33,447 nucleotides of DNA from Crocinitomicaceae bacterium. Its GTDB lineage: Bacteria; Bacteroidota; Bacteroidia; Flavobacteriales_D; Crocinitomicaceae. Below the pieces are notes generated by a model that saw only the letters and a list, made by a program, of their open reading frames with translations, ran no database searches and was not told the origin of the DNA. Location of the stretch: positions 1-33,447 of the forward strand of contig JBNKGN010000001.1 in NCBI GenBank assembly GCA_050289845.1. Direction: 5' to 3'. Shown piece after piece: positions 6,538 through 29,300 of the stretch; positions within the stretch are counted from its first letter, which is position 1; the number at the start of each line of letters is the position of its first letter. A program made the position numbers and the translations under genes.

Positions 6538-6547
6538 CCCATAAGTG

Positions 6548-7126: not shown

Positions 7127-7135
7127 GCGCTAAAA

Positions 7136-7543: not shown

Positions 7544-7547
7544 GTTA

Positions 7548-9809: not shown

Positions 9810-9878
9810 AACGTCGCGGATTGATTAGCTAAATTTAGCAGAATTCAGGGAATATCACGTAGAAGAAAGGGATCGGAT

Positions 9879-12223: not shown

Positions 12224-12811
12224 CTATTTCGCCGCGTTCAGAATGCACTCACGCACCCATTCGTTCGGAATCATATCAATGGTTAAATTGATGCGTTCTT
12301 CCTCGGAAGTATTGATCACACTATGAGGATCGGTGAGACGCATGTACCAGCATTCACCAACTTGCATAGGAACATGAGTGCCGTTGAGCAAAAACTGCAT
12401 TTCAGGGTCATTTTGGATGGGAATCGTTAATCGAATGACGGATTTTTCAATTTCCAAACCAAGGGTAGGGTCCGTGTGCGGTGCGATCACGGCTCCTGGT
12501 GCCAAACGTAACAATCGAATCAGCGTCACTTTTGTATGTGCATCGAAATGATCAATGATACTTTTCATGTATGGGGCTTCGCTTAAAATAGGTGCGTCCA
12601 TCCATTCGGTCCAGGAACCATCGGCATAATCATCAGCGGGTGGGGGAAGCGGAAGTGATGGATCGATAAAATGCGCCGGTGCGCGCAATTGAATTACTTT
12701 GTAATATTCGAAGGCACCTTTACAGATATGTGCGGTTTCCTCCATCAATTTTTGAGGATCAAAAGTAAAGGGCAGTTTTACGCGATCAGGCGTTAAAGTG
12801 TTTGTTTCCAT
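12224..12811 (-). CDS. Aspartyl/asparaginyl beta-hydroxylase-like (cupin, Fe(II)/2OG) family protein
   Basis: 195 aa. It has an H-x-D...H facial triad pattern (IAPHTDP ... W..RLTDPHSVINTSEEERINLTID) like the AspH/LpxO Pfam family as I recall it. Confidence 0.68.
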   Translation of the reverse strand: METNTLTPDRVKLPFTFDPQKLMEETAHICKGAFEYYKVIQLRAPAHFIDPSLPLPPPADDYADGSWTEWMDAPILSEAPYMKSIIDHFDAHTKVTLIRLLRLAPGAVIAPHTDPTLGLEIEKSVIRLTIPIQNDPEMQFLLNGTHVPMQVGECWYMRLTDPHSVINTSEEERINLTIDMIPNEWVRECILNAAK

Positions 12812-12987
12812 TGAATAGCATTTTGTGGTTTTGGCAACAGTTTCGTGCCACCATGTGCAAGATACAAAAAGGTGCTTTTGGTCGTTGGATTGTGCAGTTA
12901 ATTTTTTTGAAATTGCCGTAGGAGTTTCATTGCTATTATGTGTACGCTTCTCAAAGTTCAGCTGGGTATACTGAGCGTTTCCGCAAC

Positions 12988-13016
12988 GAAAAAGGCAAGC
13001 TTTTAAAAGCCTGCCT
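12988..13016 (-). terminator. Rho-independent terminator downstream of can
   Basis: The minus strand reads AGGCAGGCTTTT/AAAAGCTTGCCT, a hairpin followed by TTTTT. It begins 25 nt after the can stop. Confidence 0.6.
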
Positions 13017-13040
13017 CAATGAATTATGGATCACATTGTT

Positions 13041-13679
13041 TTACCCATTCGTCAAATTATAAATCTCTTGAATGGATTTCAGTGATTTTTGGAAGTCAAT
13101 ATTAAGATCTATCAATTCGCCAGTAGAAACGTCGAAAACGCAGCCATGCACTTCTGGATAACCTTCGGACAAATATTGTTTTTGCCAAACCGCCATTTTA
13201 ATCACGTTCAAACATTGCTCCTGCACGTTCAATTCGACCAAACGATTGTATTTTTTTTGCTCATCTTTGATGGCGTTCAATTCTTCTTTGTGCAAGCGAT
13301 ATACATCGCGAATGTTTCGGAGCCAGGGATTCAAAATTCCCAAATCAGCACTTTCCATCGCGGCTTTCACACCTCCGCAATAATAGTGACCACAGACCAT
13401 GATTTGTTTCACTTTCAAGTACTTCACAGCGTATTCAATAACAGCAGATGAATTCAAATCGTTATTTGGAATTACGTTTGCCACATTGCGGTGCACAAAC
13501 ATTTGTCCTGGTGAAACACCTGTCATTTCCTCGGCGGTCACACGGCTATCACTACAACCGATATAGAGAATGTCCGGCGTTTGTCCTTTAGAAAGGTCTT
13601 GAAAATAGTTGGCGTCAAGTTTTAGTTTTTCAGTAACCCAAGCTCTGTTGTTGTCAAATATTTCTTCGAATAAATTCAT
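13041..13679 (-). CDS. can: Beta-class carbonic anhydrase (Can-type)
   Basis: 212 aa. It aligns by eye along most of E. coli Can: YIGCSDSRVTAEE..FVHRNVANV...VCGHYYCGGV (Zn ligands C-D-R ... H-x-x-C). Confidence 0.93.
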   Translation of the reverse strand: MNLFEEIFDNNRAWVTEKLKLDANYFQDLSKGQTPDILYIGCSDSRVTAEEMTGVSPGQMFVHRNVANVIPNNDLNSSAVIEYAVKYLKVKQIMVCGHYYCGGVKAAMESADLGILNPWLRNIRDVYRLHKEELNAIKDEQKKYNRLVELNVQEQCLNVIKMAVWQKQYLSEGYPEVHGCVFDVSTGELIDLNIDFQKSLKSIQEIYNLTNG

Positions 13680-13875: not shown

Positions 13876-16572
13876 ATGAAGTTTATTGGTCGTAAAATAG
13901 CAAAATACCTTGTTGTTTCTATATGTATATTCAGCGGTGAAACATGCAGCTACGCGCAGATAGATGCATCGAACCTGAACAAGCAACTGCTAGAACATAA
14001 AATCAAATTGTTGATTGATTCGACGCGGTTGTCGTACCAGCTATCTCCCTTATTTAATGACTCGATACTGTACGTGGCATCGGATCATCACGCTAGGTAC
14101 ATGCTTTCCAAGGGGGAATTGAGCCACACAGAAGACCCTTCGAAAGCGTTTTATCATCCACAAGATCGAGCCAATTTTTATGGTGCACCGAAATCGTATC
14201 TCGTCGGTGAAAATGTAGCGTACGCACCTTACAACTCGAATGTTCGGGTCAAAGGAAAAACCTTTAACACGTATACTTACGACGAAATTGCCCGCTGTCT
14301 GGTGTTTTCCTGGATCAACTCCAAGGGACATTTTAAGAACATTGTTCATCCCGAATATCAAGTCACCGGACTGTCAATTGCGATTGATCCTGAGACCCAA
14401 CGCGTGTACGCCTGCCAAAAATTTGCACAAGTACTTTATCAGTATTCCTTTGAAGAAAATCCTGATTTTTTCCCTTATTCTTCCATGAATCAGGATTCTG
14501 TGAATGCATTAATTGCCAACGTGCCAAAGGATATGTCCTACCCATTTGGATTGCGCTATGATAAAAAAGAGAAGTGTGAAGAATGCAAGCCCGTCTGGGC
14601 GTATTATCCTCCTATTTCTGTGCGCATCGACCGTAATTATTTCGTTCTTAGAGTCGAAGATTCCGAGTTTGTGAAGACATTGATTAAAAATAAACACGAC
14701 GGATTTGCCATTGAATTGGTTCCTTTCGATCCTTTTGCCTGTGGAAATCCACAATATGAGGAGGAACCAAGTAGAAGAAACGGACAAAAAAGAACTTCAG
14801 GGCGCGTGTTGGAACCTGTGTACCGAAATGATCTTATCAAAGGGTTCAAGAAACGCAAACGGGTGAAGAATCTCACTTTTGTGAATTACTTGTTTACGGC
14901 GGATTCCGTGTCGTTTTTCCGACGCTTTGGACAGTACAAACTCGCCAGATTTGAAGCAAAATATTTTGAAGTTAAATTAGGAAAAGTGCCGAAAGACATG
15001 AATTCTTGGTGGAACCACAACCTAATGTACATTCACAACAAACAGATTTGTCACTTCCTCTTTTTAACGAATTATCCTGGGGAATTGGATTTGGAAATGT
15101 TGGATGTACCTTATTTTCCTCCAGTTCCATTGGATGATTACGAATTTGAGTTGGATCATTTCAAAGATACTCTGGAGCTCTTTTATGAAGCAGGGGAAAC
15201 GGTTACAACAAGTAAAGAATTTGAATCGCTCATTCGAAAGTACATCGAAAAGCACGTGACGATTCAACAAATCAGTATTGAAGGCTTTTGTTCCGTGGAA
15301 GGAAATGTCGCGACAAACGAAATGTTGCATCAACAAAGAGCTCAAAACATTCTTACGAGACTTCAATCCATTGTGGTTTCTGATACGATTGCCCAAATAT
15401 ATTCTCAAGTGGCTTGGGATCATTTTTACGCAAATGTCAAGGAAGATTCCAAGTGGAAGTTTTTATATCCTTTGTCGAAAAATGAAATTGTTGCATACCT
15501 CAACGATCCGACGAATGAACGGCCATTAGATATTTTAAGGAACGAACGCAAAGTCAAGGTTGAAATTACAGGAATTCGGGAATTGACATCGAAAAATGCC
15601 AACTATTACATTCAACGCGATTTAAATAAGCTTGTTTATAAGGATTCGCGCGGGAAATTACATTGTTCGAGCATGGATACTTTGCAAAAAATATACGCGA
15701 AGGCCTTTTATTTTTCAACCCTTGATACTATCTCTAAAGCAGATTTTTTAAAAATAAAATTGCCTAAGGTAGTAGAAGAGTTTCCACATAGTTTGGATCA
15801 TGATTTCGCGTTTTATCGGTATCATTATTTGAAAGAAACAGCGACTGATAACGAACGGGAAAACCTAGAATCACAAATCGAATTCGTTTTTACGATGTGC
15901 GGTGCCGCAGCTCATTTGAGTCCGCAATTTCATTATTTATCGGCATGCTTGTTGGTTGATAAAATCAAAGCAAAACCGAAAATTACAGCAGACAATCCTG
16001 ACATTCAAAAAGCATTCAATCGCTTGAACTTGTTGCTCACTTCTTATGATTTGGATAGTAATTTTAAGTTTAATATTGCGAAAGCAAATCTCAATATTGT
16101 CAATATTTTGTGCGAGACTGTTGACCCCGATCAGATTTTTGAATACACCGATATAGTGAATGCCAGTTTGATTCATATCACGGAATTTTATCAAAAATCA
16201 GGAAGTTTAACACCAGAAATAGTGTTGAAGCTGGCAAAGTTGTCGTGTTTTTTCAAAAATGTCGCACTTGCCGTTGAACTTTGCAGTCATTTCCTTGACG
16301 ATGATGAGGTGTTGAAATTGTATCTTCCTTTGGCGTATTGCCACACGTCGTATTTGAGCGGTGATGAAATGTTACAGTTTGAGCGGGACTACCACGCGTT
16401 ACTCCTTGAAGCAAAACAGCGATTGTCGGCAGAAGAATGGTGTGATCTGTTTTATGGAAATTATGGCATTCCCTTTCAAATTATGGACAACAAATCACTT
16501 CACGAGGAGTTCTGCACTACATGTCCCAACCGTTTAAATAAGGTTTTGGAGGAATTTTCTGAAGGGGAATAG
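13876..16572 (+). CDS. Large secreted CAP/SCP-domain protein (898 aa) with a degenerate OmpA-like segment and a helical C-terminal region
   Basis: It has a signal peptide (…ICIFSGETCSYAQ). CAP/PR-1-like motifs lie in the first ~190 aa (…WINSKGHFKNIVHPEYQVTGLSIA…). Mid-protein, IEGFCSVEGNVATNEMLHQQRAQNILTRL resembles the OmpA_C-like core. The rest is unassigned. Confidence 0.78.
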   Translation: MKFIGRKIAKYLVVSICIFSGETCSYAQIDASNLNKQLLEHKIKLLIDSTRLSYQLSPLFNDSILYVASDHHARYMLSKGELSHTEDPSKAFYHPQDRANFYGAPKSYLVGENVAYAPYNSNVRVKGKTFNTYTYDEIARCLVFSWINSKGHFKNIVHPEYQVTGLSIAIDPETQRVYACQKFAQVLYQYSFEENPDFFPYSSMNQDSVNALIANVPKDMSYPFGLRYDKKEKCEECKPVWAYYPPISVRIDRNYFVLRVEDSEFVKTLIKNKHDGFAIELVPFDPFACGNPQYEEEPSRRNGQKRTSGRVLEPVYRNDLIKGFKKRKRVKNLTFVNYLFTADSVSFFRRFGQYKLARFEAKYFEVKLGKVPKDMNSWWNHNLMYIHNKQICHFLFLTNYPGELDLEMLDVPYFPPVPLDDYEFELDHFKDTLELFYEAGETVTTSKEFESLIRKYIEKHVTIQQISIEGFCSVEGNVATNEMLHQQRAQNILTRLQSIVVSDTIAQIYSQVAWDHFYANVKEDSKWKFLYPLSKNEIVAYLNDPTNERPLDILRNERKVKVEITGIRELTSKNANYYIQRDLNKLVYKDSRGKLHCSSMDTLQKIYAKAFYFSTLDTISKADFLKIKLPKVVEEFPHSLDHDFAFYRYHYLKETATDNERENLESQIEFVFTMCGAAAHLSPQFHYLSACLLVDKIKAKPKITADNPDIQKAFNRLNLLLTSYDLDSNFKFNIAKANLNIVNILCETVDPDQIFEYTDIVNASLIHITEFYQKSGSLTPEIVLKLAKLSCFFKNVALAVELCSHFLDDDEVLKLYLPLAYCHTSYLSGDEMLQFERDYHALLLEAKQRLSAEEWCDLFYGNYGIPFQIMDNKSLHEEFCTTCPNRLNKVLEEFSEGE

Positions 16573-16581
16573 TGGTGATAT

Positions 16582-17553
16582 TTACTCTTGCACAGCATGC
16601 TTGTATGCCGCCCTACGCAAACGATCATTGATTGCTTCTCCGATGCCATCGTTGGGAACTTCTTCGATGAGAATGATATCGAGATTGAGGGCATCCATTT
16701 CGTACAACGCTGCGTATAAATGAGCCGCGTATTCGCTCAAATCTCCTTTCGGTGAAAGCGCTTTCTGAGGGACAGTATGGTTCGTTACAAGTAATTCGCG
16801 GAATGTGATAATACCTATTTTTAAACCGACGTAGCGCTGCAGTAATGGTTGTAGGTCTCTCGCCAGCATCAAGGGCGTGTTGGGCGAATAGTGCTTTTTA
16901 AACATCCCAGGACTTTCGGGTGCGACTTCATTGTTCGTTTCGTACACTTCGCAATTTAAGGCTTCTTCAATTTGCGCTTTAGTGATGGCGCCTTGCCGGT
17001 AGAGCAGCACTTTTCCTTCTTTAAAACCCACGATGGTCGATTCAATGCCTCGTGAACAGTTGCCGCCGTTTAAAATGAAAGGTGCTTTTTCTCCGAGGGA
17101 CAGGCGCACGTGCTCTGGACTTGTGGGACTAATGTGATTGGAGCGATTGGCACTAGGGGCGACTAGAGGGAAATCAAGGGAAGCCAACAATTGGAGAGTG
17201 ACCTCATGGTCGGGAACTCGGATGCCGACCGTATTTTTCCCCGCTGTGACCAAATCCGAAATATGTGTTTGTTTTTCGAGGACCAAAGTGAGCGGACCGG
17301 GCCAAAAGAGATCGGCTAGTTTTAGTGCAGCATTAGGAATGTTTTGTGCCACGGTGTGCATTGCTTCCTTTTCCTTGACATGGACAATTAGAGGATTGAT
17401 CGGCGGACGATTTTTTGTGGTGTAGATCAATCGAACAGCGCTGTCCGAAAAGGCATTTCCAGCCAAACCATAAACGGTTTCTGTGGGAATTGCGACCAAC
17501 CTCCCTTCTTTCAGCTCACGAGCGGCGCGGGCAATATCTGCAGTCTGCATCAT
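16582..17553 (-). CDS. tsaC: L-threonylcarbamoyladenylate synthase (long Sua5/YwlC type: YrdC domain plus Sua5 domain)
   Basis: 323 aa. It has a YrdC-fold N-terminus (GRLVAIPTETVYGLAGNA, GPLTLVL, VGIRVPDH, PLVAPSANRS) and a C-terminal Sua5 extension. Its ATG is 2 nt after the stop of the upstream gene. Confidence 0.92.
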   Translation of the reverse strand: MMQTADIARAARELKEGRLVAIPTETVYGLAGNAFSDSAVRLIYTTKNRPPINPLIVHVKEKEAMHTVAQNIPNAALKLADLFWPGPLTLVLEKQTHISDLVTAGKNTVGIRVPDHEVTLQLLASLDFPLVAPSANRSNHISPTSPEHVRLSLGEKAPFILNGGNCSRGIESTIVGFKEGKVLLYRQGAITKAQIEEALNCEVYETNNEVAPESPGMFKKHYSPNTPLMLARDLQPLLQRYVGLKIGIITFRELLVTNHTVPQKALSPKGDLSEYAAHLYAALYEMDALNLDIILIEEVPNDGIGEAINDRLRRAAYKHAVQE

Positions 17554-17555
17554 CG

Positions 17556-18401
17556 TTAAGGATTACAAAAATCACAATACATAGGGTCTTCGAACCTTTT
17601 CGAGTTCGGGAAAGACTTGCGCTCCGAATATAGACATTTTGGACACTTGTAGATGTGTTCCAGTGTCGATTTGGTCGGTAAATAGCATTGTTCACACGGC
17701 AAACCTGCGCACGCTTCTGAGACCCAAAAGCCTGGAGATTCGCAAGAGGGACAGGTACTTTCCAGTTTTTGTATTAGCTGCCGAGTGGCTTTTTCTATCG
17801 CTAGCATACGCGTTGGATTGTGCATGGCCCGCATGTCTGTTTCTATCCAAACTTCGGCATTCCGTTCGAGGAGTTCACCCACCATTTTTTCGAATTTTAT
17901 CGGATCAACCAATCCTTTAACAATGGGGCTGGTGTGCTCCTTTTTTCGAAGGATCAAGCCGTGTGACGGAAATAATGCTTGCGTAGCAAATGCTTCTGCT
18001 TCCTCCAGCGATTTGATTGTGGCACCCTGGAAATTGGTTGCAGTGGTAAGTTCCCTTCCAACGATTTCTAAATTGTTTTTTCGGTCGAGAAGCATCACGA
18101 TTTCATCGTTCGCATGTGCAAATGGAAGCAACGGATGAACTCCAAAGGAACCTTCACTGGCAATCGCAAGATCACACGCCATTACTTCCATCGCCATTTC
18201 ACACTTCTTACGTGCCGTTTCGAGTGGTGTTCCCAGGCGATCAATTTCTCCAGAGAAAGTACCTAAAGTGTCCGTGTTTATCTCAGGAACGACACACAGA
18301 GTTTCCAATTTTTTGATTAGCAGCGGAGCAATAACTGTTTCTTTTTGGTGCATGGTCGCAATGGCAATGGTACGACCCGCAAATAAGGAATTGTCATGCA
18401 T
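17556..18401 (-). CDS. Uncharacterised protein with two C-terminal CxxC...CxxC zinc ribbons (possibly DUF6671-like)
   Basis: The ORF is open from 18431, giving 291 aa. I prefer the ATG at 18401 (MHDNSLF..., 281 aa), which overlaps the upstream ORF by 8 nt rather than 38 nt. The N-terminal region reads IAIATMHQKE...DTLGTFSGE. The C-terminus reads CPSC-x18-CEQC and CPKC-x20-CDFC. The DUF6671 assignment is from memory and unverified. Confidence 0.72.
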   Translation of the reverse strand: MHDNSLFAGRTIAIATMHQKETVIAPLLIKKLETLCVVPEINTDTLGTFSGEIDRLGTPLETARKKCEMAMEVMACDLAIASEGSFGVHPLLPFAHANDEIVMLLDRKNNLEIVGRELTTATNFQGATIKSLEEAEAFATQALFPSHGLILRKKEHTSPIVKGLVDPIKFEKMVGELLERNAEVWIETDMRAMHNPTRMLAIEKATRQLIQKLESTCPSCESPGFWVSEACAGLPCEQCYLPTKSTLEHIYKCPKCLYSERKSFPNSKRFEDPMYCDFCNP

Positions 18402-18696
18402 ACATTCGTTCTCGCGTCTGCTCTGGAGCATTTAACTCGATCGAAAATTGAACGTCGACTTCGGTTTTTTCACTCAGGGAAGTGGCAAAAAACGCTTCTA
18501 TTTCAGCTTTCTTTGCTTGAAGCGCTGCAATTTTTTGTTCCGTTAACGCTGGCGTCGTTGAATGATCTCTTTCCCATTGCGAGATGTACGCGTGTTTGCA
18601 GTTCTCAATTTTTTCATCGATGAGTTTCAAGAGTAAATCTTTTGATTCGTGTCTTTGAAATCCTAAATCTTCAATGTTTAGCTTGCTTGTTTTCAT
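18394..18696 (-). CDS. Small (100 aa) predicted helical cytosolic protein, unknown function
   Basis: It is the only ORF filling the dabA-to-next-gene interval. It starts 12 nt after the dabA stop and overlaps the next gene. It is charged and helical in character (ALTEQKIAALQAKKAEIEAFF), with no signal peptide or TM segment. Confidence 0.6.
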   Translation of the reverse strand: MKTSKLNIEDLGFQRHESKDLLLKLIDEKIENCKHAYISQWERDHSTTPALTEQKIAALQAKKAEIEAFFATSLSEKTEVDVQFSIELNAPEQTRERMYA

Positions 18697-18708
18697 AATC
18701 GATTCAAT

Positions 18709-21165
18709 TTAAACGGTGACTAATTCTTTTTCTTTCTGTGTAATGCTTGTGTTTCCAGTGGCTTCCCATTGACCATTTTCACGGTAGCGGTGGCTTATTT
18801 TTCCGTTGGCATCCATGCGCGATAAGGAGATCCATCCATGATCAAACAATTGTTGAACGTGCGCGTGTTTTTCTATTATACTGTTGATTCCGTCAAGTGA
18901 CGCTTCAATGATTACATTGAGTCGTTGCGGTAAGTGTTCCAATTTTTCTCCATTGTGAACCGATTGCAAGGGAAGTCCGATGCGAAGATCGCCGTTCGAT
19001 CCTTCCATTACCCCAATTCCACCCGTGACGTTGTGCAATGTTTTGTTTCCAGCACCGAAGTGTACCGGGTCCACGGCACTCGCGTAATATTGAAGGTTGA
19101 TCCAGCTTGTTACCACCATTGGAGCGGTCATAATGCTTTCCAGGAGTTGGTGTTCTGCATCTAGTTTCTCGTCGTACGAATGCAAGAAGGCTTTTCCATT
19201 CAGATTCAATCCTTCGGTGCGTGATCTTCGGGCTATAATAAAGGCACTACATCCTGCCAATCCCCATTCTGGTCGAATTTGAGACCAATCTTGCGCTCTG
19301 CTTGCTACCTTCTTGTAAATTTTTTCAAATTGTGTGTCGCTAATCTTGAGGCGTTCCGCGCGTTCCATTCGACTCATGGCACTTGCTTTTTGAAGTGAAG
19401 TTTTGATGGATTGGATCGCTGTTGCGTGTGTTTCTGGAAGAAATTTTTCGTTGAGGATTTCTATTTCATCGGTCGTTGTATCATGCAGACATGCCACGAA
19501 AAGCGTTTTTTCAGGTATGATTGTGCCTTGTTTCGCTAGTTCTGCGCGAACTGTTGGGTCGTTCAAAATTTGTTGGGCAGTAAGTGCGTTTATTTCACCC
19601 GAATGACCACCACAAGCACCGCAATCCAGTCCTGCTGCATGCGGATTGTTCACCGAAGAAGAACCGTGTCCAGCAATCAGTACAACGGGAGCCAAATCCT
19701 TTTTGATGCCGATTCCTGTGAGTGCTCCTTGCGCCATAGCAACTTTTTGTTTGAGGGAAATCGCGGACAAATCAAGAATGCGCTCGTGTTGCAGCCATTT
19801 TTTTAGTCCATCTACTTTTGGGTCTGCTGCTGGCCGCGTCAACCCTGTGGAATCAGCGATGAGTTTCGGAAGATAGAGCAACCCTAATGGACTGACAAAC
19901 CCGAAAGAAGTGATGGCACCCGATCGAAATTTCTTCCAGGTTTTTGCTACCTGGTGTTGTGTTGTGCGTTTTCTTTTGGCACGTGTTTCATCCTTAAATG
20001 TCTCTTTTACGGTGCAAGAAGATGGTATGAGTACGGGGCATTGATTTTTCCCTTCGGAATGTCCCAATGGAACATAATCAATTGCGAATCCAAAAAATCC
20101 TGCAAATCCGAATGTTGCTATGGTTGGATCCAATTGTTCGAGGTTTCTTCGGTACACTTCGGAGCGTACATCGATACAAAAGACCATTTGTGCAGCAGTC
20201 GTGCGTTCGGTAGTATCGATTTTATGTGCAATCAAAGCGGATTCTATTTCGGATTGGTGCGCAATATCGTAGGCGTCCTGAAGGAGCAATTCCGTTTCTA
20301 TTTTCTCGAGAAACACACTGTTTTCTGCCTCGGTACCGTGCATTTTTTTGTACCAATCTTCTTTGATCGTCGTATTCCCAAATCCCTCGAGGAAGTAGAA
20401 TTCCCAAGCCAAAAGAATGGCGAGAAAAGCCTGTAATCGATTGTCTTTCTTTTCGTAGAGCGCATTGTTGAAATCCAGACCAGCGATGTATGAGGACCAA
20501 CCAAGCGTTTTTAATAAAACCGAGTGTAAATATGCTTCAACTGTTTCTTCGGGAAGCTTTATTTTGTTCAGAATGAAGGCAATCGTTTCGAAGGAATCAT
20601 CAGGAAGTGTTTTGATCGTTGCTCGGAAGCGTGGCAATCCCATTAATTCAGCGGACAAATCAACCGTGGCTTCAGCTTTCCAGGCTTGATAAACATCTTG
20701 TTCGGCTTGGGTTGTGTTCCAAAGTGCCACATACTCGTCGAAATATGCCGCAGCCCAGGAAGAAATCCGATCGACCATAAAAGTGTCCCAGTCCTTTTTC
20801 GTTATGGTAGAAGCGATACTCACCAAAGTAGCATCTTGTTCAGGGCTTTCATCGACCGTTGCTGTTAACTTTTCAATATGCTTGATCAACGCCTCAAAAT
20901 TGTTGAGTTGTTTGCCGTGTCTCTGAAATGCTGTGGCGATGGCTTCTGGAGTAATGGTGCCGTTGGTTATTTGCTCCAGGTAAAAGGAAAGCGGCATGGT
21001 CATTCGAATGTTTCCACGTTTGGCGAGGTTTTTCGCGGTATCTGAAAACGTACAGTCAGTAAAGCCTACAAAAGGGTTCACGGCAACGTAATTTTTCAAG
21101 GGCCATACAGGTGCGATGCGTTTGCAGCTCGCGTCAATCAGTGCTTTTACGTTCGTTGTGTTCAT
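18709..21165 (-). CDS. dabA: DabA (DUF2309/YbcC family) subunit of a DAB inorganic-carbon pump
   Basis: 818 aa. It has the typical DUF2309 N-terminus (IAPVWPLKNYVAVNPFVGF). Beta-CA-like Zn-site motifs are present: FCIDVRSE (C-x-D-x-R) and GHGSSSVNNPHAAGLDCGACGGH. It is paired with a NuoL/Mrp-like membrane subunit 10 nt upstream. Confidence 0.92.
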   Translation of the reverse strand: MNTTNVKALIDASCKRIAPVWPLKNYVAVNPFVGFTDCTFSDTAKNLAKRGNIRMTMPLSFYLEQITNGTITPEAIATAFQRHGKQLNNFEALIKHIEKLTATVDESPEQDATLVSIASTITKKDWDTFMVDRISSWAAAYFDEYVALWNTTQAEQDVYQAWKAEATVDLSAELMGLPRFRATIKTLPDDSFETIAFILNKIKLPEETVEAYLHSVLLKTLGWSSYIAGLDFNNALYEKKDNRLQAFLAILLAWEFYFLEGFGNTTIKEDWYKKMHGTEAENSVFLEKIETELLLQDAYDIAHQSEIESALIAHKIDTTERTTAAQMVFCIDVRSEVYRRNLEQLDPTIATFGFAGFFGFAIDYVPLGHSEGKNQCPVLIPSSCTVKETFKDETRAKRKRTTQHQVAKTWKKFRSGAITSFGFVSPLGLLYLPKLIADSTGLTRPAADPKVDGLKKWLQHERILDLSAISLKQKVAMAQGALTGIGIKKDLAPVVLIAGHGSSSVNNPHAAGLDCGACGGHSGEINALTAQQILNDPTVRAELAKQGTIIPEKTLFVACLHDTTTDEIEILNEKFLPETHATAIQSIKTSLQKASAMSRMERAERLKISDTQFEKIYKKVASRAQDWSQIRPEWGLAGCSAFIIARRSRTEGLNLNGKAFLHSYDEKLDAEHQLLESIMTAPMVVTSWINLQYYASAVDPVHFGAGNKTLHNVTGGIGVMEGSNGDLRIGLPLQSVHNGEKLEHLPQRLNVIIEASLDGINSIIEKHAHVQQLFDHGWISLSRMDANGKISHRYRENGQWEATGNTSITQKEKELVTV

Positions 21166-21175
21166 ACGTTTTGTT

Positions 21176-22762
21176 TTATCGATTAAGAGTTGTTTCGGTT
21201 TTCAATTGCAAACTATTCATGATGCGATCGAAGATTAAGTTGAAATACAGCCCGTTTCTAAGGTGAATTCCAATGCGGTTTGCCTTATTTTTATTTTGTA
21301 CGGCGTCCCCAGTAACTTGCAGTGCGACGACTATTAGGAATAGGGCAAGTACTGTTGAGGAAATAACAATAAGTGCGGTACTTGGTAGGTGAATTTCTGG
21401 AATTTGATTTCCAATGGCACTTTGCAAGATCCACTCGAAAAAGAAAAAGAAGTTGATCACCATTCCCGAGCCCAGCATCAGATAGAGGATGGATCGAAGG
21501 CTGTTGTTGGAATCCCATGAGTTGATTTGAACAGAAAGTACCCCCAGGAAGATGATACTTCCGATAATCAACAGTTGAAACTCTGTGTTCCAGGTAACGC
21601 CCCAGAAATACGCGATTGAGAAATATAGTCCTACGGAAACCAAGAGTCCAATTGCCATGCGATACACATGTCCCGAACGTACATAGTTGGAAGCGTTTTT
21701 TGTTTTAACGCGATCCACCACACTCCCCGAAGAAAGGAATCCGTGTGCTTTGTAAAATGAATGCGCAATCAAGTGTAGGAGGGAGGCTGCGTATACACCT
21801 AGTCCACAGACCATCAAAGTGAATCCCATGTGCCCAATACTGGAGTAGGCGAGTGATGTTTTAATGGCAGGTTGGGTAATCGAAACAACCGCTCCGAACA
21901 AGGCACTTAATGCTCCGATTGCGACCAGAACACTACTTGCGGTGCTGGCAACATCCATCAGGAAGGCAAAGCGAATGATGAGGAAAGGCCCAGCATTCAA
22001 GAGTCCGGCGTGCAAGAGCGCTGAAACAGGTGTTGGTGCTTCCATGACATCCAAAAGCCAACCGTGGAAAGGCACTTGCACTGATTTCAAACAGGCACTT
22101 AAAACTAGGAATACTGCGGCGAATTCGATGCGGTAGGAAGTTGTATCGCTGGAAAGCAATTGCAATTTTTCGAAAATCGCTTGGAGACTACCCGTGTTGA
22201 ATTCGAGATAGATTAAGAGTAGCCCGATGAACAGCGAAAGATCGCCCAAACGCGCAACCACGAATTTTTTTCGAGCTGCCAGGACCGCCTTTTTTCGATC
22301 TGGATAAAAGAGTAGGAGTTGGTGCAAACCGACACTCGTCCCTACCCAGGCCACAAATAGCGTAGCAATATTACCTGAGAGTACGAGAATTTGAACGAAT
22401 GCGATGGTGAAGGCAAGCCGACGAAAGAATTGTTTGTGTCTTGGATCGCCTTCAAGGTAGTTTCGACTGAAGCGGACAACCACCATGGCAATAATCGAAA
22501 TCATGGCAAACATGAGGATGCTGAGCGAATCGATTCGAATACTTAGTCCCAAATTTTGCAGGCTAAAAAACGAGACTTCTGTAGCATCGTAATTGAACAG
22601 CCATAGCGCGCCTGAAAAAGCCCCAACAAAAGCAATAATCAGTGCGGCGATCAATGTCGAGAAAACGTTAGACACTTTGTGGAAGGGCTTGCCTGAGATA
22701 CTGGTCGCAAAAAGGAGAAGCGCTGGGATAAGTAGAAGAAGACTTGTTATTGTTGCACTCAT
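21176..22762 (-). CDS. dabB: DabB (NuoL/MrpA-like proton-conducting membrane subunit, PF00361-type) of a DAB inorganic-carbon pump
   Basis: 528 aa and highly hydrophobic, with about 13-14 TM segments. It carries antiporter-like motifs (HGWLLDVMEAPTPVSALLHAGLLNAGPFL, SSIGHMGF, HSFYKAHGFL). It lies immediately upstream of dabA. Confidence 0.9.
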   Translation of the reverse strand: MSATITSLLLLIPALLLFATSISGKPFHKVSNVFSTLIAALIIAFVGAFSGALWLFNYDATEVSFFSLQNLGLSIRIDSLSILMFAMISIIAMVVVRFSRNYLEGDPRHKQFFRRLAFTIAFVQILVLSGNIATLFVAWVGTSVGLHQLLLFYPDRKKAVLAARKKFVVARLGDLSLFIGLLLIYLEFNTGSLQAIFEKLQLLSSDTTSYRIEFAAVFLVLSACLKSVQVPFHGWLLDVMEAPTPVSALLHAGLLNAGPFLIIRFAFLMDVASTASSVLVAIGALSALFGAVVSITQPAIKTSLAYSSIGHMGFTLMVCGLGVYAASLLHLIAHSFYKAHGFLSSGSVVDRVKTKNASNYVRSGHVYRMAIGLLVSVGLYFSIAYFWGVTWNTEFQLLIIGSIIFLGVLSVQINSWDSNNSLRSILYLMLGSGMVINFFFFFEWILQSAIGNQIPEIHLPSTALIVISSTVLALFLIVVALQVTGDAVQNKNKANRIGIHLRNGLYFNLIFDRIMNSLQLKTETTLNR

Positions 22763-22853
22763 AATAATCGTTCTTTGTTTTTTTTGACAAAGCTATGGGG
22801 CTTAATTCATATATTTTCATTTATATTTAGAATGGTAACCATAAAATATATTT
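22763..22853. promoter_or_regulatory. Divergent dabB / LysR control region with candidate -7 box and two dyads
   Basis: This is a 91-bp AT-rich spacer. On the minus strand, TAGCTTTG (22788-22795) fits the Bacteroidota -7 consensus TAnnTTTG about 25 nt upstream of the dabB ATG. An inverted repeat CTTTGT-N8-ACAAAG (22773-22792) overlaps that box. An imperfect palindrome ATATTTAGAATGG-TAA-CCATAAAATAT (22823-22849) lies just before the LysR ATG. Confidence 0.4.
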
Positions 22854-23750
22854 ATGAATTATACAATCAACCAGTTGCGGATTTTCCTGAAAATTGTTGA
22901 AACAAAGAGCGTTACTAAGGCTTCGGAGGAGCTTTTTATGACCCAGCCGGCGGTATCTATTCAACTGAAAAACTTCCAGGAGCAGTTTAAAATTCCCCTT
23001 ACAGAAATCGTTGGGAGAAGTCTGCACGTAACAGATTTCGGGTTGGAAATTGCTGGGATTGCTGAACGCGTTTTTGTGGAATTGGAGGAACTAAAGTACA
23101 AGACAAGCGAATACGAGGGCTTACTTGCAGGACGTTTGAAACTTTCGGCGGCTTCAACGGGAAAGTACGTGTTGCCGTTTTTCTTGTCTGATTTTCTTGA
23201 AGGTCAGCCTGGCATCGATTTGATGTTGGATGTGACCAACAAATCCAAAGTGGTAGAAAGTTTGCGCAATAACGAGATTGACTTTGCTATTGTTTCGATT
23301 TTGCCAGAAGATTTAGACGTTCACGAAGAGTTATTGCTTGAAAACAAACTTTATCTGGTCGGCACCAACGAAAACTATAAAGAGAAAAAAGTTTTGATTT
23401 TCCGTGAAGAAGGTTCGGCAACGCGTCAGGAAATGGAGCATTATTTTCAGGAAAAAGACACAAAGAAACGCAAGAAGGTGGAGCTGACTTCCAATGAAGC
23501 GGTAAAGCAGGCAGTGCTGGCTGGACTGGGACATTCGATCCTTCCGTTGATTGGAATCAAAAACGAATTGATGAATAATTCACTAAAAATCATCAAGAAA
23601 AAAGGGCTTCCGATGAAAACGGATTGGCGATTGATTTGGCTAAAAAACAAACGATTGTCCCCAGTTGCAAAAGCCTTTCTGGAATACATCCAACAGGAAA
23701 AAGCGCAGATTTTGGAGAAGCATTTTAAGTGGTACGAGGAGTTTGAGTAG
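22854..23750 (+). CDS. LysR-family transcriptional regulator
   Basis: 298 aa. It has an N-terminal wHTH (LRIFLKIVETKSVTKASEELFMTQPAVSIQLKNFQEQF) and a C-terminal substrate-binding domain. It is divergent from dabB. Confidence 0.92.
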   Translation: MNYTINQLRIFLKIVETKSVTKASEELFMTQPAVSIQLKNFQEQFKIPLTEIVGRSLHVTDFGLEIAGIAERVFVELEELKYKTSEYEGLLAGRLKLSAASTGKYVLPFFLSDFLEGQPGIDLMLDVTNKSKVVESLRNNEIDFAIVSILPEDLDVHEELLLENKLYLVGTNENYKEKKVLIFREEGSATRQEMEHYFQEKDTKKRKKVELTSNEAVKQAVLAGLGHSILPLIGIKNELMNNSLKIIKKKGLPMKTDWRLIWLKNKRLSPVAKAFLEYIQQEKAQILEKHFKWYEEFE

Positions 23751-23767
23751 CGGGCCTGTAGCCTTGT

Positions 23768-25249
23768 TCACTGCTTTATCAAACGCATCGAATGACTTTT
23801 CTCAACACGGATTAAGTAGACGCCGGATTGCAAGGTTTCAATATCAATAACGCTGGTTGGCTGTGTAAGTTCTCCCGATACTAATTCACGCCCGTTTAGG
23901 TCTACAATAGAATAGCCGATTGCACCTATGAAATTCTCCAATTCAACCTGTAAAAGTCCAGTATTGGGATTGGGATAGATCTGAAAGACTGCGGCGTGTT
24001 CGTTTTCTTCCAACGATGCGTTCGGGCAACCGCTAAGGTTCAATGCGCAAGCGATTCGGGGACAAAGGTAATTGGCAACAGTATCCAAATATGCGTTGGA
24101 TTGGGTCAGACTCATGCCAGGGTTGGTCAGAAATCCCTGATCATTAAATGTTCCGCCAGCAGGGTGGGGAATGTCCCATGTGGTAAAATCCCAATAATTC
24201 CACGGCGAATATTCGGTACTCGTGGTAATGAAAGGATACAATCCATCCAATCCTGCGTTATTCAGGTCGGCTTGAGCGGTATATGCGTCCGAATAGGTGA
24301 TCGAAGAAAAAGGGGTGTTATTCCCATAAAACGCTTGTCTTCGTTGAATTCCCTTGGAGCCAGAGGCATTGATGATAAAATCCCCAGACGTTTGGGTGAT
24401 CACTGCGCCAAAATCATAGGGAGCAAAAGGATCAAAAGGAAGTCCAAGGCTCACCATAGGAACATCGCCAGCTTCAATCCAGGTGGAATCTCCAACATAT
24501 CCTCCCAAATTGAAAGCAAAGTGAATCGCGCTGCTATAGCTAGGATAGTTGGCAATCGTTAGTGGTCTTGTTTGTGTGGCATACACATTTCCAGAAAGGG
24601 ATGAATCCACATAGGACTGCAAGGTTGTTGGGTTGATATATTTTGGAAGGGTCCATTCTTCATAACGGTCGAGGAATGCAAGACTGGCACTGATTTGACC
24701 TCCAACTCCAAAACCACCACTGATGATGCGGCTGGTATCAATTCCAAATGTATTGTTCTGTGCATCTACATCCATCCGCAGATAGCGCACCAACGTAAAT
24801 CCATCTTGAGACGCACGATATTGGGCGTTGAGATACGTACTTGTTCTAATTTCTTGCGTCGAGCCGTTTGGATTCCATCCCAATCGATAATTGTAGGAGA
24901 TTGCCACAAAGCCTCGCTTTGCGAGATTTTCGCAGAAATGTACAATCGCAGAATCGCGCTTATCACCGTATGGCATTCCATTTAGGGACGGCGGAAGAAA
25001 TTCACCATCGTGCGCAATGATAACGACTGGTCGCTCCGTTTCTGTATCACCAATTGGTTCGTAGACGTCCATCAGTAATGTCTCTGCGGACGGAAATCCA
25101 TTAATAACGGTAATACTATTCGCGTAGGGAACGTCATTCGTTACAGAGACATCCGCAAAAACCTCTGAAATATAGCGTTGCGAAAAGGTGCCAAAGCTAA
25201 AAAACAATAGGACGGTTAGAAATAATTGAGTTGCGAGTGAGGACTTCAT
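23768..25249 (-). CDS. Secreted alpha/beta-hydrolase-fold (esterase/lipase-like) protein with T9SS C-terminal sorting domain; catalytic motifs diverged
   Basis: 493 aa with a signal peptide. Block order is typical of Abhydrolase_3/BD-FAE-like enzymes (PVVIIAHDGEF ... ISYNYRLG ... SQDGFTLVRYL ... IDTSRIISGGFGVGGQIS). The C-terminal IYPNPNTGLLQVEL...GVYLIRVE looks like a T9SS CTD. Confidence 0.78.
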   Translation of the reverse strand: MKSSLATQLFLTVLLFFSFGTFSQRYISEVFADVSVTNDVPYANSITVINGFPSAETLLMDVYEPIGDTETERPVVIIAHDGEFLPPSLNGMPYGDKRDSAIVHFCENLAKRGFVAISYNYRLGWNPNGSTQEIRTSTYLNAQYRASQDGFTLVRYLRMDVDAQNNTFGIDTSRIISGGFGVGGQISASLAFLDRYEEWTLPKYINPTTLQSYVDSSLSGNVYATQTRPLTIANYPSYSSAIHFAFNLGGYVGDSTWIEAGDVPMVSLGLPFDPFAPYDFGAVITQTSGDFIINASGSKGIQRRQAFYGNNTPFSSITYSDAYTAQADLNNAGLDGLYPFITTSTEYSPWNYWDFTTWDIPHPAGGTFNDQGFLTNPGMSLTQSNAYLDTVANYLCPRIACALNLSGCPNASLEENEHAAVFQIYPNPNTGLLQVELENFIGAIGYSIVDLNGRELVSGELTQPTSVIDIETLQSGVYLIRVEKSHSMRLIKQ

Positions 25250-26345: not shown

Positions 26346-29300
26346 TTAATGAACAACAATTTTAGAACATCCTAATCCAGAGACATTGACGAAATAAACA
26401 CCTGGACTTAAATGGCCAATATCCAAGCTTACCGATTTATTCTTGGTGTTCGCATCCAGTAATTTCTTACCATGAACATCCAATATTTCAACGTTTCGGG
26501 GCATTCCGTCTGGTAGTTTAACATTGAGTTTTCCAGAGCTTGGATTTGGGTACAATGTGAATAATTGAATTTCATGTTGTTCTAACGACAAATTGTCTAT
26601 GTCAACGTATTCAACTGTAGACATTTCATCGCATCCATCAAAATTCGTTGTCAACAAAGCGTAGAACCCCGATTGAGTTATAACATACGAATCTTGCGTA
26701 GCTCCGACAATTGGATTAAAATCGAAATACCATTGATAACCGGAACCGATAAAGTCACTTTGAAGCACCGTATCATCCACTACCGTGAAAGACGAGTTAG
26801 TTACCGATGCTATCAAGGTATGACTGTCCTCAGAAATACAACCATCTTGATTGATAATAACAAGAGTTACAGTTCCTGGGCTTGTTGCCGTCACTTGTGA
26901 TATATTCTGAATAGTTATGCTCCAATCGTAATTATTTCCGGACAATATTGGGCTTGCTGTTAGATCAACGCCCGTTCCAGGGCATATTATGGTATCCCCT
27001 AAAATTTCCGCTGGAACTGGTGTAGGCAATAGTGAAATATTTAACGTGTCTACTGAAATACACCCATGAAAATCGGTTGCCGTCAGCGTTACCTGCCCTG
27101 CTGCAGTTACAAAGATAGAATCTGTAACGCTCGAATTTGACCAATTTAATTGCTGATCATTGCTAGACACTGAAGATTGCAGCAAAAGGCTGTCATATAC
27201 GCAGAGAACAGAATCTCCCTGAATCTGAACTTCTTCATATCCATAGTAAGTAAACAAAACAGTATTATTTGCTGCATCGAAATCAGTCAGTCCATTCGGA
27301 AAATCAATGTTTACGAATATGGAATATGTCTCCCCAGACAGGAATGGAAATGTTCCCAAATTTATCTCATCAGCACCACCCGATGCAATAGAACCCGTCC
27401 AAACGCCTGTGATAGGTGTTCCGCTATTCACACTCCATTCATACGTAAATGAAGTCAATGAAGTATCCAAATTGTTTTGAACGAGAATAACTACACTATC
27501 CTGCAAGACACACAACAATCCGTCGGGTGCTAACAAGCTATCGATAGCGATATCATAAAACAAGGTTGAATCAAAATCGAACTCGTCCGCACCAATATCT
27601 GGGAAGTTCAAATCCCTAATCTCCGCGTCAATATCATCTGTTACACTCGGTAAAGGAACTCCGGCACTATCGATGATTGCTGCATTCGTATGTAAGTCCG
27701 TATTCGAGAAGAATTGAGGGTCTCCAAAGATTGAATTATTATCGTTTGCGGTGGTTGATTGCCAAGATGCAAAGCTGTAATTGGCACCGTCTATACTGGC
27801 AAAATCAAGTATTGATCCTCCATGAAAGAGGTTGTAATTGCTTGATACATTCCCCAGATTGTTTACACTTTGACCGAAAAAATAATGGTAGCTACTGTCT
27901 TCGAGTTTGACTATGTTATTTTGAAAATCCAATCCGACGGTATTCTCTAATTGAAGTCCGTTCTCTCCTGCCAAAAAGGAATTATTGTAAATTTTTATGT
28001 CAGCGCAATCACTCGTCCAAATTGGACTCTTCTCAGTAACGATGAAATTGTTTTTGGCAATTGTTTCCCCGGAAATCTGAACCAAATTAAGCCCATTGTG
28101 CGTAGATTTTATGGTATTTTCGGAAATTAAAACTGGTCCTGCACTCCAAGAAATATCAATGGCCGAATTAAAATACTGCTGCGATACGTCAAAGTGGTTA
28201 TTGATAAACTCTAAATTCTCAGAAGAGAAGTGTCTAACAAAGCCATAATCACCGGTGAATTTACAGTCTTGCAATAGAAAATTATCACAATGGTCCACGT
28301 CAATTCTAGTCGTCTTAAAAGTACAACTCTTAAAGCTTAAGCCATCCGCTCCAGGAACGAAAGAATTTTCCGTTTCGAACTCCGATTCAGGTCCGAAATA
28401 ACACGAATCAAATGATAAGTTTGTTGCCTCAAAAAGACTCAAGTCTGGCGAGTTTGAGGTGTTGTTTTTCTCGAAGTTCAAATGTTTGAAATAGACGTTA
28501 TATACTCCATGAAAATCTAACTTACCCGAGAGAGAACCTGAAGAAACGATCACATTGCCCGTATCTGGTATTGCCGACTGGAAATAGATCGCTGTAGTGC
28601 TCGTATTTCCAGGAATTGGACCCAAATCTCCCCAGTTGTTGTAAAATCCTGGGTTTATATTGAACCATACGGTGTCACAGATTCCTACGTGCAAGTTTGT
28701 CAATGCATCTTGAATAGTAGTAAAGTCCGCAGATGTTCCGCCTACTGTGTAAACTCCTGCTAGCTTCGTACTTAACGTGAATTCGAAATCATTGTTCTGG
28801 TATAATGAATCTTCAATTCCATTTGGCATGTTCGAATTCAAGCTAATGACTGGATTTACTCCGAGCACAGCGTAATTACCGATAAATACATTTACTGTAT
28901 CAAAGGAATTGATCAGAGTTTGCACAGAAACAGTATCAATAGTACTTCCATTAATGCTCACGTACACTTCAAAACTATCAATTGGATCGGATCCATAATT
29001 TGACATTTCAACATAGAGGTCTTCCTGCGCATCTTGACATATACTTGTGCCACTTAAATTGGAGCTCGGTAGCATAACCAAATCAATAAGTGGTTTCTCA
29101 AATTCGTGCGATCCCATATCGGGAGAAATGACATCACGTAGATTCAATACAATATCATCCGTTATTCCACCAAGAGGAATTCCATTGTTATCAATCAAGT
29201 CAGTAACGGTAGGCAAAAGCAATGAATCACTTATAAAAACTGGGTCAAAGAAAGTAGAATTCGCATCTTGATTCGTAGCCGTTTTATAGGCTAAGAAATC

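Follow-up and report, generated by a model that had tools for sequence, protein, structure and literature searches.

A LysR-headed operon in a Crocinitomicaceae genome probably joins a DAB carbon pump, a DUF6671 protein and TsaC within a wider family of CO2/bicarbonate supply operons

To our knowledge, carbonic anhydrase and the DAB/MpsAB pumps are the only understood means by which non-autotrophic bacteria obtain their bicarbonate under atmospheric CO2, and we know of almost nothing on the regulators, accessory proteins and prioritised consumers of bicarbonate in such organisms. A locus in a complete metagenomic contig of 33,447 nucleotides from a Crocinitomicaceae bacterium (assembly GCA_050289845.1, contig JBNKGN010000001.1, positions 1 to 33,447; hereafter the window) bears on this question. 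The dabB-dabA genes of an inorganic-carbon (Ci) pump are followed there by two uncharacterised genes, orf100 and a gene for a DUF6671 protein, and then by tsaC/sua5, and it may be asked what these three genes are doing behind a pump. An earlier note on this DNA had proposed a DAB-orf-orf-TsaC module in which the two unknown proteins serve the pump. Our analysis leads to a different reading, which we consider fairly probable: the five genes form one operon of a generic Ci regulon, in which DUF6671 would be a soluble, nucleotide-linked enzyme or sensor acting downstream of the carbon supply. The features concerned are as follows.

22854-23750, plus strand: LysR gene, 298 aa, PF00126 and PF03466, divergent from the operon
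22763-22853, no strand: control region, 91 bp between the LysR gene and dabB
22788-22795, minus strand: −7 promoter box TAGCTTTG, 25 nt upstream of the dabB ATG, an exact match to TAnnTTTG
21176-22762, minus strand: dabB, 528 aa, PF00361 (164.6 bits) and PF00662
18709-21165, minus strand: dabA, 818 aa, PF10070 (828.3 bits)
18394-18696, minus strand: orf100, 100 aa, of a Bacteroidota-wide family of ~95-aa proteins without a Pfam entry
17556-18401 (281 aa) or 17556-18431 (291 aa), minus strand: DUF6671 gene, PF20376 (285.8 bits)
16582-17553, minus strand: tsaC/sua5, 323 aa, PF01300, PF03481 and TIGR00057
13041-13679, minus strand: beta-carbonic anhydrase gene, 212 aa, PF00484 (169.7 bits), product without a signal peptide

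The listing of open reading frames (ORFs) bore out the coordinates, spacings and overlaps reported earlier for all six genes from LysR to tsaC, with the LysR gene facing the order dabB-dabA-orf100-DUF6671-tsaC across 91 bp and the five pump-side ORFs all on the minus strand. The junctions measure 10 nt (dabB/dabA), 12 nt (dabA/orf100) and 2 nt (DUF6671/tsaC); orf100 and DUF6671 overlap by 8 nt with the 281-aa start and by 38 nt with the upstream ATG, and the stop codon of tsaC lies 9 nt from that of a convergent gene. The 281-aa start is the likelier one, because the homologues (276-290 aa) align from this position, and a copy in an NCBI metagenome-assembled genome (MAG) is also called at 281 aa. 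A terminator scan of positions 16000-24000 found four sites against 8.7 expected by chance, and on the minus strand of the block only one match resembled a terminator, a weak stem of 6 bp within dabA whose T tail is poor. A sigma-70 promoter scan gave 16 matches against 12 expected and is uninformative for Bacteroidota; the Bacteroidetes −7 consensus TAnnTTTG was therefore used in a motif search. TAGCTTTG was its sole exact occurrence on the minus strand of 16582-22853, and the motif was also found shortly upstream of several other genes on the contig. Rfam models run over the whole window revealed no riboswitch or leader in the operon, the only match being a tRNA (32710-32783, minus strand). 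The earlier view of five genes without a promoter-sized gap thus stands, with a single −7 box and that weak stem in dabA. Because of the tight junctions, the single −7 box and the lack of a convincing terminator, dabB-dabA-orf100-DUF6671-tsaC is likely a single LysR-controlled transcription unit; we infer this co-transcription, as degenerate internal promoters are possible. Identical orf100 and DUF6671 proteins in the order dabA-orf100-DUF6671-Sua5 were found on a 7,966-bp MAG contig (JBNKIA010000072.1, GCA_050290645.1; L175), and a 3-kb Logan contig from SRR36185835 also carries this operon.

To what extent does this gene order travel with the pump? A DabA scan of one genome per GTDB species gave 80 loci, ten from Bacteroidota (47-57% identity) and the rest mostly from Planctomycetota; together with the window and one locus found later (L165), the ten (L001-L010) made up 12 Bacteroidota DAB loci. 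A divergent LysR gene was present at all ten of these with a visible upstream region. Downstream of dabA, orf100 was found in 8 of the 12, DUF6671 in 5 and TsaC in 2, namely the window and a Crocinitomicaceae MAG (L009), and the genes after DUF6671 in L001, L165 and L009 showed no homology to one another or to other loci. Among the 60 assessable DAB loci outside Bacteroidota, meaning those with at least 1 kb downstream, neither orf100 nor TsaC occurred, and DUF6671 directly followed dabA in two (L061 and the similar L074), leaving 58 without it. DAB-type isolates include Marinigracilibium pacificum, with dabBA-orf100, and Algoriphagus kandeliae, with dabBA only. L061 is labelled Bdellovibrionales, and its DUF6671 gene (12453-13295) is cut at 246 aa owing to a frame change in the zinc-ribbon region. 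L074 is labelled Trueperaceae, yet its contig may be misbinned, because its DabA and DUF6671 resemble those of L061. The DAB-orf-orf-TsaC module is thus not a conserved unit: the neighbourhood survey that the earlier note had called for confines it to close relatives, an outcome which that note had itself named as counting against the module.

A different picture emerged when DUF6671 was used as the query. A metagenome scan with the DUF6671 alignment retrieved 80 loci whose proteins are 48-55% identical to that of the window, and their neighbours were sorted by crude gene calling and clustering followed by family searches. DabA or DabB was found in none of the 80. The neighbours were instead a dihydroorotase (PyrC; 45 loci; NF006688, 630 bits, above cutoff), TsaC/Sua5 (23 loci, in 21 of them directly adjacent, on either side), a divergent LysR gene (22 loci; product 53-62% identical to the window LysR), NADP-isocitrate dehydrogenase (IDH; 19 loci; NF006673, 794 bits), an SbtA-like Na+/bicarbonate transporter (18 loci; PF05982, 392 bits), a 93-aa ORF directly upstream of DUF6671 (18 loci), an 80-aa paralogue of this ORF (11 loci) and a beta-carbonic anhydrase (3 loci). 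The typical string reads LysR, divergent from IDH, small ORF, small ORF, DUF6671, TsaC, PyrC and SbtA. In 29 loci the sequence reached 3 kb or more to either side of DUF6671. LysR was present in 14 of these, PyrC in 14, IDH in 13, the SbtA-like gene in 12, TsaC in 7 and beta-carbonic anhydrase in 3; IDH, SbtA or beta-carbonic anhydrase accompanied DUF6671 in 18. The cultured Flavobacterium taihuense carries LysR divergent from small ORF-DUF6671-Sua5-beta-carbonic anhydrase-SbtA, which by its gene content is the window operon with a different carbon-supply module. Two more small genes recur in the Bacteroidota island. Their products are a 164-aa protein without a family match, encoded directly upstream of the SbtA-like gene (cluster c14; L087, L098, L103, L144), and a 103-aa CutA1-like protein (cluster c18; L097, L098, L101, L126; PF03091, E = 1.5e-4), which we take to have a PII-like fold. 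Either could be an analogue of SbtB.

The same pattern extended to a second DUF6671 clade. This clade is ~33-38% identical to the window protein. A search with the L061 protein gave 366 homologues, several of them labelled Bdellovibrio or Bdellovibrionales, and their contexts were read from precomputed Pfam labels. Behind a divergent LysR gene, we found DUF6671-SbtA-like-PII-beta-carbonic anhydrase in L161 and L172, DabB-DabA-DUF6671 in L162/163, and IDH-DUF6671 with overlapping reading frames in L164, L167 and L168/169. L170/171 (6001-10637) holds LysR divergent from IDH-DUF6671-PyrC-QueA-methyltransferase-Sua5, and its PyrC is the non-orthologous homodimeric type II enzyme (TIGR00856, 486 bits). 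With QueA (queuosine) and Sua5, two tRNA-modification enzymes stand in this one DUF6671 operon. The accessory role in the DAB system proposed earlier for the two unknown proteins is contradicted by these surveys, because orf100 and DUF6671 are present in DAB-less loci and absent from most DAB loci.

The regulator and its control region connect the different versions of the operon. The window protein is a LysR-type regulator by its N-terminal HTH_1 domain (PF00126), its substrate-binding domain (PF03466) and its divergent siting. Its best NCBIfam match is the CbbR model at 161.8 bits against an equivalog cutoff of 450, and it is thus CbbR-like only. It shares 65-78% identity with the LysR proteins at nine Bacteroidota DAB loci, in addition to the 53-62% shared with those heading DAB-less DUF6671 loci. 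We aligned the ~90-bp regions from LysR to the first gene of 26 Bacteroidota loci, eight DAB-type and 18 DAB-less (IDH-, carbonic anhydrase- or DUF-first). Mean column identity was 69%, and the invariant positions span both types of locus. The alignment contains a conserved ~37-bp block, TTTATG-N6-CATTA-CAAATATAAATAAAAAT-TATGA, corresponding to window positions 22809-22845 and including the palindrome ATGGTTACCAT at 22832-22842. After the block comes a conserved nAnnTTTG box (columns A60, T63-65 and G66). The block 22809-22845 is a candidate LysR operator and could serve as a regulon search pattern. Because this region is conserved between DAB-type and DAB-less loci, the same cassette of regulator, operator and promoter would drive DabBA in some genomes and IDH, carbonic anhydrase or DUF6671 in others. 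The control region also holds AT-rich inverted repeats, one of which overlaps the LysR start codon.

What kind of protein is DUF6671? The window protein matches PF20376 at 285.8 bits against a gathering score of 23.8; the model spans only residues 66-281, leaving the conserved N-terminal 65 residues outside. Clustering at 90% leaves 4,217 homologues, and at 50% identity the family falls into 1,781 clusters; nearly all members are of ~280 aa. An AF2 model built from 55 sequences (pLDDT 93.8, pTM 0.89) shows an alpha/beta domain of the N-terminal ~210 residues followed by two C-terminal Cys4 zinc ribbons. The best Foldseek matches in the PDB were E. coli RdgB, YjjX and human ITPase, then Maf and CinA-C (probability 1.0, E 2e-4 to 1e-3, TM-scores 0.27-0.46), and inosine/xanthosine triphosphatase, dITP/XTP pyrophosphatase and potyvirid HAM1 led in the viral library BFVD. 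Weak Pfam matches to HcgB, a guanylyltransferase with an ITPase-like fold, were obtained for 8 of the 55 members. The 44 invariant positions of the family include H18, K20, D44, R55, K66, E83, H89, H147, E187, D189, R191 and R198 as well as the eight ribbon cysteines, which make up the two Cys4 zinc ribbons. Since so many charged residues are invariant, they may mark an active or ligand-binding site rather than a scaffold. As far as the predicted structure goes, DUF6671 is thus probably a soluble enzyme or sensor of ITPase-like fold that binds or hydrolyses nucleotides.

The small protein encoded before it had no match in Pfam or NCBIfam. When a profile was built from the 93-aa ORFs that precede DUF6671 where DAB is lacking, it matched orf100 over its full length (28.9 bits) with a shared alignment pattern, and a profile search returned 1,122 homologues of ~91-97 aa, all annotated as hypothetical, from Spirosoma, Flavobacterium, Flavihumibacter and other Bacteroidota. 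Some members (P0121-P0123, P0130, P0142 and others) are tandem two-copy fusions of 185-188 aa, which match the adjacent 80-aa and 93-aa paralogues of many loci. The AF2 model of orf100 (pLDDT 77) consists of a strand, two long helices and a strand, and Foldseek found generic helical hairpins at best (E = 0.4). A JGI label of one homologue as YlbF/YmcA-like was unsupported by any search. Two candidates for orf100 homologues at other DAB loci were also discarded: the 82-aa ORF after dabA in L002 is an unrelated membrane peptide, and the 141-aa ORF between dabA and DUF6671 in L074, like all second-clade ORFs, did not match the small-protein profile. Genes of the orf100 family are always tight to the next gene, with the 8-nt overlap in the window and a 4-nt overlap or gaps of 1-2 nt elsewhere, and this tight translational coupling suggests that orf100 is a binding partner of DUF6671.

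The pump itself is of a known kind. DabA, the cytosolic subunit resembling beta-carbonic anhydrases, matches PF10070 over model positions 1-747 of 747. An alignment of 75 DabA sequences shows conservation of at least 97% for the zinc-site residues C330, D332, H500 and C515, which are spaced 2/168/15, compared with 2/171/15 in DabA2 of H. neapolitanus, where C351, D353, H524 and C539 are essential, alanine mutants failing to rescue carbonic-anhydrase-free E. coli (bioRxiv 10.1101/476713). DabB belongs to the NuoL/Mrp-type family of proton-conducting membrane subunits, and dabB lies directly upstream of dabA in all related loci. Judged by these features, the window encodes an intact DAB pump with two subunits, as in DAB2 and MpsAB. 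Such two-subunit systems occur in non-autotrophs and are thought to replace carbonic anhydrase (10.1101/476713; PMC6689103). The earlier statement that DAB is known solely as a two-component system is outdated in view of DAB1, a DabA/DabB/DabC heterotrimer of Thermocrinis albus and H. neapolitanus in which DabC is required (bioRxiv 10.64898/2026.05.01.722082), and of S. aureus mpsC (PMC6689103); a literature search under the name DabC returned nothing relevant. No small transmembrane protein of the DabC kind is encoded in the block, where dabB is the only membrane ORF, and the pump is placed with DAB2/MpsAB for this reason. The grand average of hydropathy is −0.65 for orf100 and −0.16 for DUF6671, and orf100 was rejected as a DabC candidate because it is not a membrane protein.

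The beta-carbonic anhydrase gene, which the earlier note had not mentioned, lies 2.9 kb beyond tsaC on the strand of the dab operon, with a convergent gene for an 898-aa protein in between. Its cytosolic product is 52% identical to the beta-carbonic anhydrase of locus L141, where that gene flanks LysR. The window gene may belong to this Ci neighbourhood as an outlier, and possibly to the regulon. A conventional carbonic anhydrase so near a vectorial pump is a noteworthy arrangement, as it could short-circuit bicarbonate accumulation.

At the other end of the supply stands TsaC. The window protein matches PF01300 (189 bits), PF03481 (100 bits) and TIGR00057 (183.7 bits against a cutoff of 123.2), and its predicted product is L-threonylcarbamoyladenylate synthase, for which bicarbonate is a substrate in the synthesis of N6-threonylcarbamoyladenosine (t6A). 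The partner to which TsaC is linked is DUF6671 and not DAB: TsaC adjoins DUF6671 in 21 of the 80 metagenomic loci, in both gene orders, compared with 2 of the 12 Bacteroidota DAB loci, and it lies within seven genes of DUF6671 in 12 of 34 clusters formed at 70% identity. The other recurrent neighbour also depends on CO2, since the E. coli-type dihydroorotase needs a carbamylated lysine derived from it. The idea that the amidohydrolase beside DUF6671 is a novel cyclic-carbamate hydrolase was rejected, as its scores exceed the equivalog cutoffs for dihydroorotase in both lineages. In human mitochondria t6A synthesis is limited by bicarbonate; the human enzyme YRDC has a bicarbonate Km of 13 mM, and mitochondrial t6A falls without CO2 (PMC5951830). 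The coupling between a Ci pump and the t6A step suggested in the earlier note is supported in one respect: the co-location of TsaC with Ci supply recurs far beyond close relatives (F. taihuense; L170/L171). A literature search combining TsaC, carbonic anhydrase and operon found nothing relevant.

Taken together, these observations lead us to propose the following mechanism. The window operon would be controlled by LysR and probably responsive to low CO2, and DabBA would use the proton gradient to convert CO2 into cytosolic bicarbonate, a mechanism taken from published work. TsaC, joined in many relatives by dihydroorotase, would ride along as a bicarbonate/CO2-dependent enzyme, and the frequent inclusion of the two fits a logic of supply plus needy consumers. 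The constants of the operon family, which appears to span at least two phyla with Bacteroidota and a Bdellovibrio-like clade, would typically be the divergent LysR and DUF6671, often plus an orf100-family protein in Bacteroidota. The Ci module would be interchangeable: DabBA, an SbtA-like transporter with PII and/or beta-carbonic anhydrase, or IDH as an internal source of CO2. We read the regulon as one of Ci homeostasis because DAB, SbtA, carbonic anhydrase and IDH have only one property in common, that they provide the cytosol with CO2 or bicarbonate. Orf100 and DUF6671 would then be generic members of this regulon and not pump subunits, with DUF6671 acting downstream of whichever supply module is present.

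Several points weigh against this proposal. DUF6671 is absent from 7 of the 12 Bacteroidota DAB loci; none of the listed partners was found in 5 of the 29 well-flanked DUF6671 loci; DUF6671 of Psychroflexus salis has no Ci-related neighbour; and, as a converse counter-example, Flavihumibacter fluvii has LysR divergent from IDH-small-small without DUF6671. The locus counts are not phylogenetically independent, the 80 loci corresponding to 34 clusters at 70% identity, and the second-clade LysR is only weakly similar to that of the window (38% over the HTH, in a single locus pair). The responsiveness to CO2, like the co-transcription, is something that we infer from the DNA. The link between IDH and Ci is our interpretation, since IDH is a central enzyme of the TCA cycle, and the TsaC/PyrC neighbourhood could be inherited synteny, since both are housekeeping genes. 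As for the nucleotide-linked function, the predicted resemblance of DUF6671 to ITPases is at the fold level only (TM-scores as above). An hhalign comparison with the presumed sequence of E. coli RdgB gave 12% probability and aligned only EGSFGxHP with GFGYDP; no Ham1, Maf or NTPase_I-T Pfam match occurred among the 55 members, and a PDB sequence search with the DUF6671 profile gave zinc-finger noise only (E at least 0.2).

How else might the locus be explained? If orf100 and DUF6671 were dedicated accessory or regulatory subunits of DAB, a third and a fourth component in the manner of DabC, and the five genes a specific DAB-TsaC module, their tight packing behind dabA would be expected, as would the presence of orf100 after dabA in eight Bacteroidota DAB loci (three of them without DUF6671) and of DUF6671 directly behind dabA in the distant clade (L061, L162/163); an essential third subunit also has a precedent in DabC (10.64898/2026.05.01.722082). 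We nevertheless hold this to be very unlikely. DAB accompanies DUF6671 in none of the 80 metagenomic loci, both proteins are found with SbtA/carbonic anhydrase or IDH instead, 58 of the 60 non-Bacteroidota DAB loci lack DUF6671 and all 60 lack orf100, both proteins are soluble, unlike the membrane protein DabC, and in other systems DabAB suffices to rescue carbonic-anhydrase-free E. coli (10.1101/476713; PMC6689103). The main alternative for the inclusion of TsaC and PyrC, as housekeeping genes, is synteny inherited without a shared function. DUF6671, tsaC and pyrC would be old Bacteroidota neighbours beside which a LysR-dabBA(-orf100) cassette had landed, with read-through incidental. The occurrence of TsaC with DAB in just two Bacteroidota loci and the solitary state of some DUF6671 genes speak for it, and the 65-78% identity of the DAB-associated LysR across different orders is consistent with a mobile cassette. 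It appears rather unlikely to us in the face of DAB-less loci headed by the same divergent LysR and conserved operator, of three different Ci modules paired with DUF6671 in a clade only 33-38% identical, of gene-order inversions that keep TsaC and DUF6671 adjacent, and of another lineage that has DUF6671 beside the non-orthologous type II PyrC with Sua5 three genes on. The junctions of 8 nt and 2 nt are, moreover, too small for independent intergenic promoters.

Two further explanations tie DUF6671 to one of its partners. It might belong to TsaC, as an ITPase-fold enzyme or carrier for the labile threonylcarbamoyl-AMP or a related carbamoyl- or carboxy-adenylate, the Ci genes being present only since TsaC needs bicarbonate. 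The adjacency of TsaC in 21 of 80 loci in both orders, the Sua5 gene within the same operon in a distant lineage, a predicted ITPase/YjjX/HcgB-like fold implying chemistry at the nucleotide alpha-phosphate, and the instability of threonylcarbamoyl-AMP as described in PMC7913687 all favour this view. With TsaC in only 7 of the 29 well-flanked loci and 1 of 8 distinct second-clade contexts, and with LysR, IDH and SbtA all commoner partners of DUF6671, we consider it distinctly unlikely. Alternatively, a LysR-IDH-DUF6671 core might be a TCA-cycle, 2-oxoglutarate or redox regulon to which DAB, SbtA and carbonic anhydrase are secondary recruits, DUF6671 acting on a metabolite linked to isocitrate, 2-oxoglutarate or NADPH. 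IDH is indeed the commonest first gene (13 of 29 well-flanked Bacteroidota-type loci and 4 of 8 second-clade contexts) and often overlaps the DUF6671 start, and the LysR-type Ci-uptake regulators of cyanobacteria sense 2-oxoglutarate. There is, however, no IDH in the window, L161, L172, L162 or L174, where the operon consists of Ci genes and DUF6671 only, and CO2/bicarbonate supply is the sole property that IDH shares with DAB, SbtA and carbonic anhydrase; the probability that we give to this explanation is accordingly very small.

Returning to the generic Ci regulon, the pump, TsaC and LysR are of known kinds. Three things appear new: an extended operon architecture that is conserved while its supply module changes, two uncharacterised protein families that go with this operon, and the recurrent genomic link between Ci supply and t6A/pyrimidine synthesis. 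Literature searches found no paper that mentions DUF6671, and targeted searches found no earlier description of Ci supply linked genomically to t6A or pyrimidine enzymes in free-living bacteria. The two families would be new candidates for bacterial CO2/bicarbonate homeostasis, standing beside three different Ci supply systems, and the link to TsaC and dihydroorotase would extend the idea of a CO2-sensitive t6A from human mitochondria to bacteria, a lead of use for work on CO2-concentrating mechanisms, Ci uptake and tRNA modification. Going further, we suggest only tentatively, and with less confidence than the generic Ci regulon, that DUF6671 (with orf100 in Bacteroidota) is an unrecognised and widespread component of CO2/bicarbonate homeostasis, a LysR-controlled nucleotide-dependent enzyme or sensor linking the supply device to t6A and pyrimidine synthesis. 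If this is true, free-living heterotrophs would deliberately shield t6A modification from CO2 limitation.

Other genes of the window were also noted. In the 898-aa protein convergent with tsaC (13876-16572, plus strand), a signal-like N-terminus is combined with an N-terminal domain of the CAP/cysteine-rich secretory kind (PF00188); its gene may be an insertion into the Ci island, because beta-carbonic anhydrase directly follows Sua5 at that place in F. taihuense. A type-IX secretion sorting domain (PF18962) occurs in three proteins (26346-32540, minus; 3676-5529, plus; 23768-25249, minus), one of them of 2064 aa with NosD-like and matrixin-like segments; by the distribution of this domain, the contig belongs to Bacteroidota. 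On the minus strand a photolyase/cryptochrome gene and immediately afterwards a TspO/MBR gene (9879-11174 and 11176-11637) were found, and a molybdopterin oxidoreductase gene lies at 7548-9809. These genes may form a cluster related to light or stress and without connection to the dab operon.

Comparison with known systems places the locus more exactly. The best structural matches of the predicted DUF6671 domain in the PDB and BFVD are to the ITPase-like superfamily (RdgB/HAM1/ITPA, YjjX, Maf, HcgB); DUF6671 is set apart from it by the TM-scores of only 0.27-0.46, by the lack of a significant sequence or profile match and by the two Cys4 zinc ribbons, which DUF6671 alone adds. In cyanobacteria the LysR-type regulators CmpR and NdhR (CcmR) control sbtA-sbtB, cmp and ndhF3-D3-cupA, and SbtB is a PII-like nucleotide sensor. 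LysR-type control of Ci uptake and a small soluble nucleotide-binding protein co-encoded with the transporter would be common to those regulons and the present operons, and the second-clade loci hold SbtA-like, PII and beta-carbonic anhydrase genes after DUF6671. In contrast, no autotrophy genes occur in the available sequence, DUF6671 has no relation to PII, one supply module can stand in for another and the operons take in TsaC or PyrC; the window LysR is likened to CmpR, NdhR and CbbR by type only, given its CbbR score of 161.8 against 450 bits. With the mitochondrial t6A system of YRDC/OSGEPL1, the operon has in common the TsaC/Sua5/YRDC family, for which a millimolar bicarbonate Km is known and t6A follows a Ci supply largely from the TCA cycle and carbonic anhydrase (PMC5951830). 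There the coupling is kinetic and physiological within an organelle, whereas in the bacteria considered here it would be genomic, through a shared operon with Ci supply genes. DAB1 illustrates that a DAB operon can hold an extra small protein, there needed for function (10.64898/2026.05.01.722082); DabC, however, spans the membrane and can be aligned with a portion of NuoM, whereas orf100 is a predicted hydrophilic helical hairpin and DUF6671 is soluble, and both occur also in DAB-less loci. The window pump resembles DAB2 of H. neapolitanus and MpsAB of S. aureus, with a PF10070 subunit carrying the Cys-Asp-His-Cys zinc site beside a PF00361 NuoL-like subunit and, in S. aureus mpsA-mpsB as in the window, the gene for the membrane subunit first (PMC6689103). 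S. aureus mpsC is set off from mpsB by a weak terminator, is dispensable and shows no synteny beyond staphylococci (PMC6689103). The window pump differs from these systems in having the gene for a conventional beta-carbonic anhydrase ~3 kb further on, and in that it runs without a gap into three further genes under a conserved divergent LysR at its head.

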